Source: Dictyostelium discoideum
Lineage: Eukaryota
Direction of reading: 5' to 3'
NCBI GenBank assembly: GCA_000004695.1
Contig: CM000153.2
Coordinates: 3,520,001 to 3,584,000, forward strand
DNA: 64,000 bases
In this document: positions 3,048 to 55,374 of the stretch, piece by piece
Numbering within the stretch: position 1 is the stretch's first letter
How the letters are laid out: each line of letters starts with the position of its first letter
The notes under the pieces: model-generated
The model's input: only the letters and a program-made list of their open reading frames with translations
Database searches by the model: none
Told to the model about the DNA's origin: nothing
Program-made: the position numbers and the translations under genes

Positions 3048-5270
3048 TTAAAGTTTTAAAGATTCAACTATTTTAATACAAGAAGAACTATATGACCAAG
3101 CATCACCAGATAATCTTTTAAATTTAATACCATACATATCCATACCATTTACTTTACATACTTCAATTTCGAAATTGATTGTTTCATTTCTTGGACACAA
3201 AGTTTTACAATCAAAAACATAAAAGTTTCTACGGTAGGAAATTTGAGTTGAATTTAAATTTTCTTCAATGTGTTCAATCAATTGAATTGGATTTAACATT
3301 GTAGTTGTTCCACTATTGAAAGGTCCTTTCATTGAACGAATCTTTGGATTCTTTCCTTTTCCAGATCTAATGGTAATTGCTTTGACAATATCCTCCAAAC
3401 TAAATCTTCTTTTCGATGAAGATGATGAAAATTGAGGTGCACTTGCAGATGCTCCATCAACATTAATATTACTACTACTAACATGTAAAATATTGTTATG
3501 ATTATTATTGTTTAAACCACCATTACTTGAAACAATAACAGGTGAGGAATTTGCTGAAACACTTGTAACAGATTGTCTCTTTTTGAAAATATTATGAAAT
3601 AAACTTGTACTATGATGATTTTGATGATGATGGTGATGGTGATATTGATTTTTACCAGAGGTATTAATATTATTTTGTGAACTACTTAAACTATTATGAT
3701 TATTATTTGGAATATGTCCAATATTTGGATTACTTGAAAATGTTGGTGGACTTCTTTGACCACTAACCGATAATGGTGATAATGGTGGTGTTGTTGAAGT
3801 TGATGGTGATGGTGATATAAATTGTGGTGAAATTGAATGTGGTGATGTTGGTGCACTACAATTAATTTTCTTTTCATCCAAACATGATGATGAATTAAAT
3901 TGAATTGGTTTAATTGAATTATTAATTACATTACTATTATTATTATTATTGTTGTTGATGTTAATGTTAATATTAGAATTACTACTAACATATTGTTTAT
4001 TTTGTGGTATAGTTAAATTTGGTGAACTTTGATTTAATGGTCTATTACTACCAATAATTGTGTCAACAAATAATGGTTTTGGTGATCTTGGTGAATGTTG
4101 TTGTAGTTGAGATTGTGGTTGTAGTTGTTGTTGAGTTTGTTGATGTTGTGGAGTTTGTTGTTGTTGTTCTTTTTCTAAACGATCAGAAACTTTTTTATTA
4201 TATTCTTGATCAGGTTCCATATCATAACCCTTATTAACCCAAACATGAGTTTTAATTTCATCAAGAGTAGCTCTTTCAACTGGTTCAGCAACAATCATTC
4301 TATTGATTAAATCTTTAACATCATCACTTAAAATTACATGAGATGGATATTTGAATTCACCTCTTAACAATCTATCCATACCTTCAACTTGAACACCATC
4401 AGTTAATGTCCATGGTAATTGACCAGTTACCATTGCATATAAAATTACACCCATACTCCAAATATCAACTTCATTACCATTATATCTTTTTTCTAATAAA
4501 ATTTCTGGTGGTGCATAAACTGGAGAACCACAAAATGTTGATAATAAATTTCCTGGTTTAATTATATTACTATAACCAAAATCTTTTTTTTTGTAAAAAA
4601 AAAAATTAAATTAATATATTATTATTTTATTTTTTTTTAAAAGATTATAATACATACCACTAATTTTTAAATTACCATCTTCATCAACTAATAAATTTTC
4701 CAATTTTAAATCTCTATGACACACCATATTTGAATGACAATAGATTAAACCACAAAGCATTTGTCTAAAGAATTTTCTACCTTCTTTCTCTGATAATCTA
4801 CCACGGGCGACAATGTAATCAAATAATTCACCACCAGAAACTAATTCTAAAATCAAACAAATTCTACCGACATCATCTTCATAAATTGCATCATGTAATT
4901 GAATGATGTTATCATGTTTTAAACGTTTTAAAATTGAAATCTCTCTTTCAATTTCTTTTCTTTCTTTTATTCTTTTAGGTTTTGTTATTTTAATAGCATA
5001 TTGTTTTCCAGTTAATATATTTGTACCGATTTTAACTTTACTTGATGTACCAGATCCAATAGTTTTACCCAAGAGATAATTTCCCATTTTGTGACCTTTT
5101 TTATGTTGTTGTTGTTGGGGTTTATTTCTATATCCAGGTGATACTTTATTTTGTTTTGGCGAATTTGATGATGAAGATGTTGTTGAATTTGATGAACATG
5201 ATGTTGAGCATGATACTTCTTGAATTGTTTCCAATTGAATATCATTATATGATGAAACAGCTGTTGCCAT
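3048..5270 (-). CDS. AMPK/Snf1-family (AMPK-related) Ser/Thr protein kinase with a C-terminal KA1-like tail ending ..ESLKL. Exons complement(4658..5270) and complement(3048..4582).
   Basis: ORFs 4611..5270 and 3048..4454 are joined by a GTATGT...AAAAAG intron (4583..4657), restoring HRDLKLENLLVDEDGNLKIS|DFGYSNIIKPGNLLSTFCGSPVYAPPE. Motifs GSGTSSKVKIG, SGGELFDYI and HRDLKLEN are close to AMPK alpha/MARK. The C-terminus KFKRLSGDAWSYSSSCIKIVESLKL resembles a KA1 domain with an ELKL-like end. Confidence 0.9.
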
Positions 5271-6376: not shown

Positions 6377-6825
6377 CTTGGGTTTTTTAATATTGAAAAA
6401 ATAATGAAAAAAAAAAATTAAATAATGATTATAGATAAAGATTTTTAAATCTGAATACAATAAAAAGAAATAATTGTATCGAAAATGGTTTGTTTTACAA
6501 ATTTAAGTATTATATCCATTTTTTATTTGTAAAATGTCGAAAAATAACCACAACACCACTCCCTCTCCTTAAAACACAAACGAAAAAAAATTCTGTCGCA
6601 ACTTTATCAATTATCTTTTATTATTACTTCAATTATTTTAAAATAATGAAATAAAATAAAACTATAAAAAAAAAAAAAAAAAAAAAAAAGTTTTACCCCA
6701 ATTGTTTATCATCACTAAATGTAGTGATGATGAAATTAAAAAATAAAAAATAATTAAATAATAATTTCTTTTTTTTTTTTTTTTTTAAGTATAAATTTGA
6801 TTATAATAAATAAAAGAGATATAAA

Positions 6826-6870
<45 letters not shown>

Positions 6871-7216
6871 ATTGAAAGGGGTGATTTTTTTTTTTTTGTT
6901 TATACATATTTAATCTAATATATTTAAAATATTTTTAATTTACACATCACATATATAATGAAACATACCCAAAATTAATATAATTTCTTTTTTTTTTTAA
7001 AAATTTTTTTTTTTTCCCAATTATCTGTTAAATTAAAAATAATCATTAATAATTTTATTACAAAACATTTAAATGATTCTATAAAAAATAATATTATGTG
7101 TGAATATATGTGTGGAGTGATATGATTTTATAGTAGTTTTTGGGGGGGTTAATTTTAAAAAAAAAACCCTGGATTTCCCAAAAAAAAATTTAAAAATAGA
7201 AAGGAAAATTAAAAAT

Positions 7217-7248
<32 letters not shown>

Positions 7249-7415
7249 CAAAAAAACCAACCTTTTTTTTTTTTTTTTTTTTTTTGTATTATTTATTTGA
7301 ATTTTATCAACATCAGTGAATGAAAATTAAATATTATAAAAGATTTTTGTGGTTTATTAAAGAAAATGAATTATAAAACTGAGAATAATTATTTGATTTA
7401 CTATTAATTTTTTAA

Positions 7416-7446
<31 letters not shown>

Positions 7447-7785
7447 AAAAATAATTAATTAAATTTTTTAAATTTTTTTTTAAACATATTTAAAATAAGT
7501 ATCTACCAAAAATATTATTATTTTAATAATTATTATTTCTTTAATCAAATAAAAATTTATTTACCCAATAATTGAAATTAAAAAAATAAAAAAAATAATT
7601 ATTAACAATACAGAAGTTATTGTTTAAAACATACTTATAAGTGTAACAGATCAGAAAGTTTGCCAGTATTAAAAAATAAAAAAAAATAATATTTATTTAA
7701 ATATTATTTTTATGTATTTATATAAATACTTAACAATAAAAATAATAATTAAAAAAAAAAAAAAAATTTTGATTGAATAAATAAT

Positions 7786-22967: not shown

Positions 22968-23181
22968 AATAATCAATAGTAATCAAAAAAAACTAAAAAA
23001 AAAAAAATCAAAAAAAAAAAAAAAAAAAAACAACAACCCCCCCCTTCCAAGAAACAAAAGAATCAAAACAAACCTTGTAATAATACGAATAGTATTTATT
23101 TCAAAATTCTTTTTTTTTCCCGAACCAAAAAGCTAATCTACGTATCTCTCTTCAACGCCAACCTCAATATAAAGAAAACTT

Positions 23182-23229
<48 letters not shown>

Positions 23230-24376
23230 TAGGCTTTCATGAAAAAAAAAAAAAAAAAAAAAAAAGTTTAATTTCTCTTCAAATGGATAAATTCCAACCT
23301 TTTAAAAAAAAAAAAAAAAAAAAAATATAAATAAGAAAAAAAATTAAAAAAAAAACAAATATATAAATTTTTTTTTTTTATAGTTTCTAAATTTAATGTG
23401 TATATTACAAAAACAACTCCAGCTCATAAATAAATAAATAAATAAAATTTTTTTAAAATAAAAAAAAAAAAAACCAAACCTCTCACTGTTTCTTTTTTTT
23501 GTGTCAACTGATTTTCCAGATCACGATTATTTTTATTTTTATTTTTTTTCAGAAAATTTTTCATCCAACCAAACTCTCTTTTCAATGATTGGCCAACGGC
23601 TTACGGTCTAAAATTTGAATTTAATTTAATTTCGTAATCAGGAGTAGCCATTGGGCAACTATTCCTTTTTTTTTTTTTTATATTTTTATTTTTTATTTTT
23701 TTTCTAATCAATTTTCACCTACCCACACAAAAGGATCTATTTTTTTTTTTTTTTTTTTTTTTAATTTTTAAAATATCTGAAAAAAAAAAAAATTAAATAA
23801 AAAAAAATAATGGTAAAAATAAATTATAATAAAACAAATGAGTAATAAATACTTTTTGATTATTTAAAAACCACAAAATTTTATTAATTAATTTTTTGTG
23901 ATTGGTTGTGATAATTTAATTGGATTTAAAATGTTAATATTCCCAAAATAAAACTAAAATCTATGCACCCTGGGCCCAATCATTTTATTATGCAGGAGAA
24001 AGAATTTGACAAATTATAAATTTTATACCTTTAGTGATTGAAATTTCCAAATATTATTCAACCTGGATTTTTAAAAATATTTGGATAAAAAGATAGTTAG
24101 AGTAGATATAATAGTAATGGATTGAAACAAATTCAAAAGTTGAAAATAATAAAAGAAAAACATTCACACCATTTACTTATTTTTTCAAAACATAAATAAA
24201 CAAAAATGATAACAAATACAATTTAATTAAATTTTTTTTTTTTTTTATATTTTTATATTTTTAATTTTACTTTATTATTATTTAGTTTTATTGGATTTTT
24301 TATTAAAAAAAAAAAAAAAAAAAAAAAAGAAATTTATTTTACATGATTAATTATTTGTTTTTTTTAAATATAAAAT

Positions 24377-24642
24377 TTATTCTTCTAATATTTCTAAAAC
24401 CTTTTTCTCTTTGTTAATTAATGCCATTTGTGGTGGTTTTGATTGTTCAGGTCTAGGTGTTAATCTTTTTCTTCTTCCTTTACTTGGTTCAGTGCTTTGG
24501 TTTGATTGAGTAGCATCTTTTAGATTAATTAAATTTACTATTTTTTAATTTATAAAAATAAATATTAATATTAATTTTCTGTGTTTTCCATAGGTTTTTT
24601 TTTTTTTTTTAAACAATTACATTTGTTGAAACCAATATTCAT
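24377..24642 (-). CDS. Candidate unannotated mini-gene encoding a 60-aa basic protein, MNIGFNKLNLINLKDATQSNQSTEPSKGRRKRLTPRPEQSKPPQMALINKEKKVLEILEE. Exons complement(24621..24642) and complement(24377..24537).
   Basis: An island of ordinary codon composition sits in an otherwise poly-A/T intergenic region. An ATG exon of 22 nt is followed by a GTAATT donor, an 83-nt AT-rich intron and a TAG acceptor, then an in-frame 53-codon exon ending TAA. There is no homology I can name. Confidence 0.3.
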
Positions 24643-25214
24643 TTTACAGTTTTATTTTTATCTATATTTTATTAAACAAAACAAAAAAAAATTCTTTACT
24701 TTTTTTTTTTTTAATTTATTTGTTTTTTTTTTTTTTTATTTTTAATATTTTTATTTTATTTTATTTAAATTTTAATTTTAATTTTTATTTTTATTTTTAA
24801 AAAAAATAATGTAAAAGAGTTGCGACTAGGGGATATTAATTGTAAATCAAATATCATATATTTAATTTTTTTTATTTTTTTCCATATATTTTTCTTTTAA
24901 TAATAAAGTGAATGATTTCTTTAAAAAACCAATATTAACATTCTTATAATTATCTTTATTCTATTTATATATGTACCACACAAATAAAAAAAAAAAAATC
25001 AAAAATTAAAAAAAAAAAAAAAAAAAAATGGTTTATTGGTTTTTGTTTTTATTTAACAGATAAAATAAAAATTAATACAATAAAAAAAAAAAAACAAAAA
25101 AAAAAAACAAAAAAAAAAATAAACTTTTTAAAAGTGCATGGTTTTGAAATTCAAAATATAAAAGAGATAGCATTTTCCAAACATTTTTTTTTTCTTTTTT
25201 TTTAAAATAAAAAA

Positions 25215-25270
25215 ATATGTCAATATCACAAACATAAATAAATATGTCAATATCACAAACATAAATAATA
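25215..25270. repeat. Perfect tandem direct repeat of about 26-28 bp (atatgtcaatatcacaaacataaata x2)
   Basis: Seen directly, about 300 bp upstream of the ATG at 25567. Confidence 0.8.
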
Positions 25271-25426
25271 AAAATGGAATAATAGTAATAAAAATAATAA
25301 CAAAAATAATAATATATTGTTTTGGAAGTGGATATAATTTTAATAACCATTAGATATTAATGATTATTAATAAAAAAAAAAAAAAATCACAAATCTTAAA
25401 CCATAAAATTTTACTATCTTTACTAG

Positions 25427-54724: not shown

Positions 54725-55374
54725 TCTGTTTTAAATATTACACTGTGCAATGTTTTGTAATTATTTTTTTAACATTTTTAATTAACTTTGAAAAAAAAAA
54801 AAATAAAAAATAAAAAATGAAAAAAAAAAAATGAGAAAAAAAAAAAAAAAAAAAAATGAAAAAAAAGGAGGGAAATTTGCTAAGTTACTTTTTTTTTATA
54901 TTTTTATTTTTGTTAATTTAATAAGAAATGATTTTTTTTTTTTTTTTTTTGTAATCCCACAAAACAATTTTAATTAAAAGAAAGTTAATTTAAAATTTTT
55001 TTTATTGATATATTAAAATGTGATAAATCACAATAAAAGTTGACCTCACAGCAATTAACTAGTTTTAAAGAAACCCCCTTGTCAACTGTACTTTTTTTTT
55101 TTTTTTTTAATAAATAAAATTAAGAATCCTGGAAATCCAAAAAAAAAAAAAAAAAGAAAAAAAAATAATAATAATAAGCAAAAAAAACAAATAAAATAAT
55201 ATTTTTAAATTTAATTATAAATTTTATTAAAATGTTTGATTTTTAAGGTTGTAAATTTATAAACCCATTGGTGTAATTTGATAATCAAATTGTTTTTTTT
55301 TGATGATCAAACAAAACTATATCTAAAAGTACTTGGTAAATTATTAATTTGTTAATTGTTTGATGGTATTTTGT

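Follow-up and report, generated by a model that had tools for sequence, protein, structure and literature searches.

Inhibitor-1 and DARPP-32 (Pfam PF05395) are small, basic and disordered proteins in which a Thr-Pro site is preceded by basic residues; they carry an RRRRPTP run and an RVxF motif for docking to PP1. A broader point of comparison is the class of lineage-restricted micro-proteins encoded by small open reading frames (smORFs). These products are shorter than 100 aa, disordered except for one short helix, equipped with short linear motifs, confined to a narrow clade and missed by most pipelines. They form a descriptive class and not a homologous family. Nichols et al. (2019, PMC6397043) reported [S/T]PR as a phospho-motif of the atypical MAP kinase ErkB. 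The signalling peptide SDF-1 is trapped on a cation exchanger, and is therefore basic, and it builds up during the slug stage (PMC1885808). Prespore cells release a precursor of it, and TagB cuts this precursor (PMC4334915).

Here, we analysed a mini-gene in a window of 64,000 nucleotides (the whole stretch of DNA under study) from Dictyostelium discoideum. This DNA is extremely A/T-rich and encodes proteins that are 100% identical to those of strain AX4. The 60-aa product shares all the features listed above for smORF products, but the mini-gene, in contrast to many smORFs, contains an intron and evolves under clear purifying selection. With inhibitor-1 and DARPP-32 the product has in common the small size, the basic and disordered character and a Thr-Pro preceded by basic residues; however, it has neither the RVxF motif nor the RRRRPTP run, and its own basic run varies between species. 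Its invariant T34-P-R fits the motif of ErkB substrates, whereas neither the mini-protein nor its peptide LTPRPEQSK is present among the entries listed in six supplementary files of PMC6397043.

The locus is best explained, and very probably so, as DDB_G0285651: a genuine gene of two spliced exons, encoded on the minus strand and flanked by a G-alpha gene and DDB_G0285653. What is new is modest: the AX4 gene model is validated by conservation, the orthologues are missing from six newer annotations, and the gene is an orphan of a narrow clade. DDB_G0285651 is thereby shown as a real, selected and developmentally regulated gene and not as prediction noise. The practical value is small, and the gene opens or settles no major question.

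Locus, annotation and homologues

The mini-gene lies on the minus strand within a spacer of 2.6 kb that separates two plus-strand genes, the G-alpha gene and DDB_G0285653 (Table 1). The context of its start codon is AAAATG, an in-frame TAA occurs four codons upstream of the ATG in AX4, and the stop codon TAA occupies positions 24379-24377. The spliced coding sequence of 183 nt is translated into 60 aa, exactly the peptide given in the preliminary description, whose exon and intron borders on the minus strand were correct to the base. The AATAAA beyond the stop codon is a candidate poly(A) signal, a hexamer that is common by chance in such DNA.

Table 1. Coordinates of the mini-gene, its protein modules and other features of the window.
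Feature	Position	Strand	Remarks
G-alpha gene, last exon	ends 22967	+	flank of the spacer
AATAAA, candidate poly(A) signal	24333..24338	-	39-44 nt past the stop; read from sequence
Mini-gene exon 2	24377..24537	-	161 nt, 28.6% GC; 2 nt + 52 codons + TAA; residues 8-60
Predicted C-terminal amphipathic helix, residues 44-59 (...KKVLEILEE)	24383..24430	-	AlphaFold2, single sequence
Central motif L33-T-P-R-P-E-Q-S-K-P-P-Q44	24428..24463	-	most conserved linear motif
Basic cluster K27-G-R-R-K-R32	24464..24481	-	basic character kept, residues not
Mini-gene intron	24538..24620	-	83 nt, GTAATT...ATAG, 12% GC (88% A+T)
Mini-gene exon 1	24621..24642	-	22 nt; ATG (24642-24640) + 19 nt; MNIGFNK + first base of Leu8
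Conserved block including TATAAATAG, then oligo-T run	24917..24969	-	275-327 nt upstream of the ATG; 0.80 identity to D. citrinum and D. firmibasis
DDB_G0285653, BCCIP-family	starts 25567	+	other flank of the spacer; 100% identical to the AX4 protein; XP_638198.1
Rfam Dicty_Class_I_RNA	55039-55088	+	42.3 bits, gathering score 41.5

The locus had been called unannotated at first. This was wrong, because the peptide matches the catalogued hypothetical protein DDB_G0285651 of D. discoideum AX4 with 100% identity and 100% coverage (60 versus 60 aa), and the same 60-aa model stands in RefSeq (XP_638197.1), GenBank (EAL64663.1) and UniProt (Q54MU6). Since the protein sequences are identical, the two-exon model is identical too. 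The database entry does not differ from the mini-gene in any respect, and it carries no function, family or orthologues. Neither DDB_G0285651 nor Q54MU6 is mentioned in any searchable main text. Thus, the mini-gene is a known gene, an ordinary and already catalogued orphan micro-protein gene.

We searched for relatives of the product in several collections. A word-seeded search of about 5.8 billion proteins with the single mini-protein gave no homologue beyond the identical DDB_G0285651, and a profile of six mini-protein sequences found no relative among the same proteins. No homologue was detected by full HMMER against 1.84 billion representative proteins. In Pfam, no family was found at E ≤ 1 for the mini-protein and none at E ≤ 10 for the six orthologous sequences, and the best matches to PDB sequences (E-values of 1.9 and 4.3) were noise. 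As expected, megablast of the mini-gene against a plasmid collection gave no match.

A tblastn search of other dictyostelids had been suggested as a check of the gene. In D. purpureum and Polysphondylium violaceum, tblastn and a profile HMM detected no copy at the matching BCCIP locus, with nothing above noise within 8 kb. Synteny is broken in both species, where the G-alpha neighbour is absent beside BCCIP. Another minus-strand gene stands divergent to BCCIP there, at 6632-7096 of the D. purpureum locus (154 aa) and at 6942-7772 of the P. violaceum locus (276 aa); these two products have no Pfam domains and no resemblance to the mini-protein. Because the G-alpha gene is absent and a different gene lies by BCCIP in these distant species, either the arrangement of the D. 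discoideum clade is derived or the others have been rearranged. As far as matching loci allow a test, the mini-gene is confined to the clade of D. discoideum, D. citrinum and D. firmibasis.

Coding evidence and alternative readings

The BCCIP neighbour served as the anchor for finding the matching loci in six further genomes. With AX4, the comparison covered seven genomes, namely three of D. discoideum (AX4 and two isolates), two isolates designated D. cf. discoideum, D. citrinum and D. firmibasis. The order of the G-alpha gene, a spacer of 2.3-2.6 kb and BCCIP is the same in all six. The spacers were aligned, and the gene was rebuilt genome by genome.

Retention of the frame and of the splice sites in related species had been named as a further check, and both are retained in all seven genomes. 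The ATG and the upstream AACTGTAAA are kept throughout, exon 1 is always exactly 22 nt long, and the GT donor, the AATAG acceptor, the reading frame and the stop codon are preserved in each genome. The intron measures 71, 72, 82, 83, 98, 106 or 116 nt, so that only splicing keeps the frame; unspliced read-through meets a stop after 10-50 codons in every genome compared. The product has 60 aa, or 64 aa in D. firmibasis, and the only indels within the exons are of 3 nt and 6 nt. When all six frames of exon 2 were examined, only the annotated one was free of stop codons in all seven genomes.

The substitutions point in the same direction. They favour third codon positions, dN/dS of the mini-gene ranges from 0.06 to 0.44 (Nei-Gojobori), and the three pairs with the greatest divergence show a significant excess of synonymous changes (Fisher p = 0.006, 0.008 and 3.6e-5). 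Identity to D. citrinum and D. firmibasis is 0.82 in exon 2, 0.65 in the intron and 0.58 over the whole spacer. The mini-protein of AX4 is 73% identical to that of D. citrinum and 72% identical to that of D. firmibasis, and the BCCIP neighbour protein is 73% and 68% identical, respectively, so the mini-protein diverges about as fast as its neighbour. Our comparison shows that the gene model is under purifying selection in the clade of D. discoideum, D. citrinum and D. firmibasis.

We also considered the length of the open frame as evidence of coding and rejected it. The stop-free run that contains exon 2 has 55 codons, and a run of at least that length arises in 96% of shuffles of the spacer that preserve its dinucleotides. 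The spacer itself has 34 runs without a stop that reach at least 35 codons, the longest with 115. These are mostly poly-K, poly-F or poly-I, because long A and T stretches read as poly-Lys or poly-Phe.

Codon usage was scored as log-odds, with the long genes of the window as the training set and the spacer as background. The mini-ORF scores +0.69 bits per codon, and the real genes of the window score 0.76 ± 0.35. The other 33 open runs of the spacer all score −0.01 or less; by codon usage, no open frame of the spacer except the mini-ORF is gene-like. The preliminary description had seen it as one island in nearly pure poly-A/T between 23.0 and 25.5 kb. The gene-like frame is indeed there, but it is not the sole island richer in G+C, since further such blocks lie at 23117-23166, 23567-23666 and 23967-24016 (34-44% GC), some of them conserved.

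Rosengarten et al. (2015, PMC4403905) carried out an RNA-seq time course of AX4 development. In their Additional file 7, DDB_G0285651 appears four times in differential-expression lists (baySeq FDR ≤ 0.01). One entry stands in the sheet filter_UP under UP_Hr11_gradual (columns counted against the header), and a second is most probably under UP_Hr14_gradual. Because it appears in up-regulated lists, the gene is transcribed and is induced around the mound-to-slug period. Its mRNA thus rises in mid-development, as is shown for the reference at 11 h and is probable for that at 14 h.

A look-up meant to reveal spliced transcripts gave no record of the exact 60-aa product in the Logan/ENA/JGI gene index of assembled contigs. 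DDB_G0285651, Q54MU6 and the peptide LTPRPEQSK are absent among the entries listed in the supplements of two phosphoproteome papers and of a life-cycle proteome of 2026, which does list the neighbour XP_638198.1. Overall, the two identifiers are absent among the entries listed in the supplements of PMC6397043, PMC12785797, PMC6198379 and PMC12821622. This is weak negative evidence, because a basic protein of 6.9 kDa yields few usable tryptic peptides.

Three other readings of the locus were weighed against a real gene. In AT-rich intergenic DNA, a chance ORF or a prediction artefact without function may be suspected, and the ease with which shuffles of the spacer reach 55 codons, the lack of a homologue in any protein database and the omission of the mini-gene from six newer annotations would all agree with it. 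However, the conserved gene structure, the low dN/dS and the sole open frame effectively refute this reading, and the codon usage and the developmental regulation in RNA-seq also speak against it, so that we give it next to no weight. A conserved non-coding element could be open by accident; it might regulate the flanking genes in cis or be transcribed as a non-coding RNA. The same spacer contains even more conserved non-coding blocks (0.93 identity at 23317-23466), and peptides of the mini-protein were not found among the entries listed in the proteome and phosphoproteome supplements. Against such an element stand the bias to third positions, a dN/dS well below 1, indels that keep the frame, the kept position of the stop, an annotated frame that alone is open in all seven genomes, gene-like codon usage and the lack of any Rfam match in the spacer at E ≤ 1, and they make it very improbable.

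The gene model itself may be wrong or incomplete, with exon 2 belonging to a larger or differently spliced gene that has another first exon, an extra 5' exon or another start. This could be suggested by the conserved TATA-containing block about 300 nt upstream of the ATG, since transcription from there would imply either a 5' UTR longer than is usual in Dictyostelium or a further exon hidden in it. However, all seven genomes share the ATG with its AACTGTAAA context, an exon 1 of exactly 22 nt and the GT donor, the in-frame TAA closes the frame four codons upstream of the ATG in AX4, and none of the other open runs of the spacer resembles coding sequence in its codon usage. We consider an error of this kind improbable. 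The comparative evidence and the published differential-expression lists uphold the original view of a genuine two-exon mini-gene, and we hold with high confidence that DDB_G0285651 is a real, spliced, protein-coding gene.

It had also been claimed that ORF finders with length cut-offs miss small genes like this. Annotation does overlook the mini-gene, as none of the six other Dictyostelium assemblies calls the orthologue. It is intact yet uncalled between the G-alpha gene and BCCIP in both D. discoideum isolates, both D. cf. discoideum isolates and D. citrinum. In D. firmibasis (GCA_036169595.1), the orthologue, with its ATG at about 5381 and its stop at about 5089 of the locus, is likewise uncalled. 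Thus, the mini-gene is a concrete case in which a conserved intron-containing frame rescues a micro-gene lost to filters of length and homology.

The D. firmibasis annotation has a 16-aa CDS (MYYKFELFFFLFYFIS) on the minus strand at 5001-5051 of the locus, just 3' of the stop of the orthologue. It looks like a CDS mis-placed on a transcript model of the mini-gene orthologue; if so, it would hint at transcription of the minus strand in D. firmibasis too.

Protein modules and possible function

The mini-protein has a mass of 6.9 kDa, a pI of about 10 and a GRAVY of about −1.1. It appears to be basic and for the most part disordered, with three short conserved modules as its building blocks. In the N-terminal module, MNxGxNKLxLIN, and just beyond it, M1, N2, G4, N6, K7, L8, L10, I11, N12 and K14 are invariant in all orthologues. 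Position 5, which holds the only Phe of the mini-protein (F5), carries Val or Met in D. citrinum and D. firmibasis. The basic patch varies, with KGRRKR in AX4, RERKKK in D. citrinum and KGRRKT in D. firmibasis, and the pattern of a monopartite nuclear localization signal, K[KR]x[KR], has no match in any orthologue. In the central motif, L33, T34, P35, R36, P37, Q39, S40, P42, P43 and Q44 are invariant in all orthologues. T34 is the only [S/T]P site of the mini-protein, and its TPR context is found in all seven orthologues. The AlphaFold2 model of the single sequence predicts a helix at residues 44-59 with block pLDDT of 85-92, the remainder being coil at 62-76. K52-E60 (KKVLEILEE) does not vary among the orthologues.

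The mini-protein is a compact and experimentally tractable orphan that offers one candidate phospho-site besides its three invariant modules.

The RRKRLTP stretch had been presented as a textbook PKA/PKC site that recalls inhibitor-1 and DARPP-32, and a heat-stable phosphatase or kinase regulator of this type would be switched on by PKA at its Thr. The likeness extends to a small, basic and disordered protein with an invariant Thr-Pro, and to basic residues at −3 and −2 in most orthologues ([RK][RK]xT, as KRLT or KKLT, in 6 of 7). However, no orthologue shows profile similarity to PF05395 or to any other Pfam family at E ≤ 10, and both the RVxF PP1-docking pattern ([RK]x(0,1)[VI]{P}[FW]) and the Arg-run site (R{3,4}xTP) are absent from all seven. 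The RRKR run is not conserved either, being RKKK in D. citrinum and RRKT in D. firmibasis. What is invariant is L-T-P-R-P-x-Q-S-x-P-P-Q, a proline-directed [S/T]PR site. The strict PKA pattern of ELM excludes Pro after Thr, and T34, with Pro at +1, fails it. Kinship with inhibitor-1 and DARPP-32 was accordingly rejected, and we regard a regulator of their kind as highly improbable.

For the gene that we favour, DDB_G0285651, a mode of action can be put forward only tentatively. Conservation of the motifs and the structure model are consistent with a small disordered adaptor or regulator that may be docked by its helix and switched at Thr34. The C-terminal amphipathic helix would dock on a partner protein, and the central motif would act as a proline-directed phospho-switch at Thr34. 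A candidate kinase context would be [S/T]PR, as reported for the MAP kinase ErkB. ErkB as the kinase of Thr34 is a guess, a lead and not a result, and motifs as short as [S/T]PR predict the kinase poorly. The cells used in the ErkB phosphoproteome study were reportedly earlier in development than the induction of DDB_G0285651 at about 11-14 h.

It is pure speculation, and of very small probability, that a developmental signalling peptide such as SDF-1 is derived from the mini-protein or from a protein related to it. As a phosphopeptide, SDF-1 can be re-phosphorylated by PKA, and AcbA, the precursor of SDF-2, is not known to carry a signal peptide. DDB_G0285651 would fit through its small size, its basic character, its conserved basic-Thr site and its lack of a signal peptide, as well as through its induction at about 11-14 h. 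A gene for the SDF-1 precursor was not found named in the searchable literature. However, "synthetic SDF-1" was already in use in 2007 (PMC1885808); therefore, its sequence must be known to some laboratories and may well be unrelated to the mini-protein. Somewhat likelier than an SDF-1 precursor, though itself a speculation, would be a clade-specific protein under control by phosphorylation that inhibits a kinase or phosphatase or acts as its adaptor.

Other elements of the spacer and the window

The conserved block with TATAAATAG upstream of the ATG may be the core promoter of the mini-gene, or part of a divergent promoter shared with DDB_G0285653.

Several non-coding blocks of the spacer, at 23300-23466 and also at 23495-23530 and 23590-23610, are more conserved than the mini-gene. 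At 23317-23466, identity to D. citrinum and D. firmibasis is 0.93-0.94 despite a G+C content of 4-12%. Short invariant islands, AATAATCGTGATCTGGAAAATCAGTTGACAC and AAGCCGTTGGCCAATCAT (CCAAT-like), occur in these blocks on the minus strand. The blocks have no Rfam match, and their open frames show non-coding codon usage. They could be the 3' UTR of the G-alpha gene, a regulatory module or an undescribed non-coding RNA.

Two copies of aaatatgtcaatatcacaaacataaataa stand in direct tandem at about 25216-25270, within the A/T-rich spacer that precedes DDB_G0285653. The surrounding part (25072-25350) is poorly conserved between species. No tRNAs were found in the window. At the gathering threshold, the only Rfam match in the whole window is a Dicty_Class_I_RNA on the plus strand.
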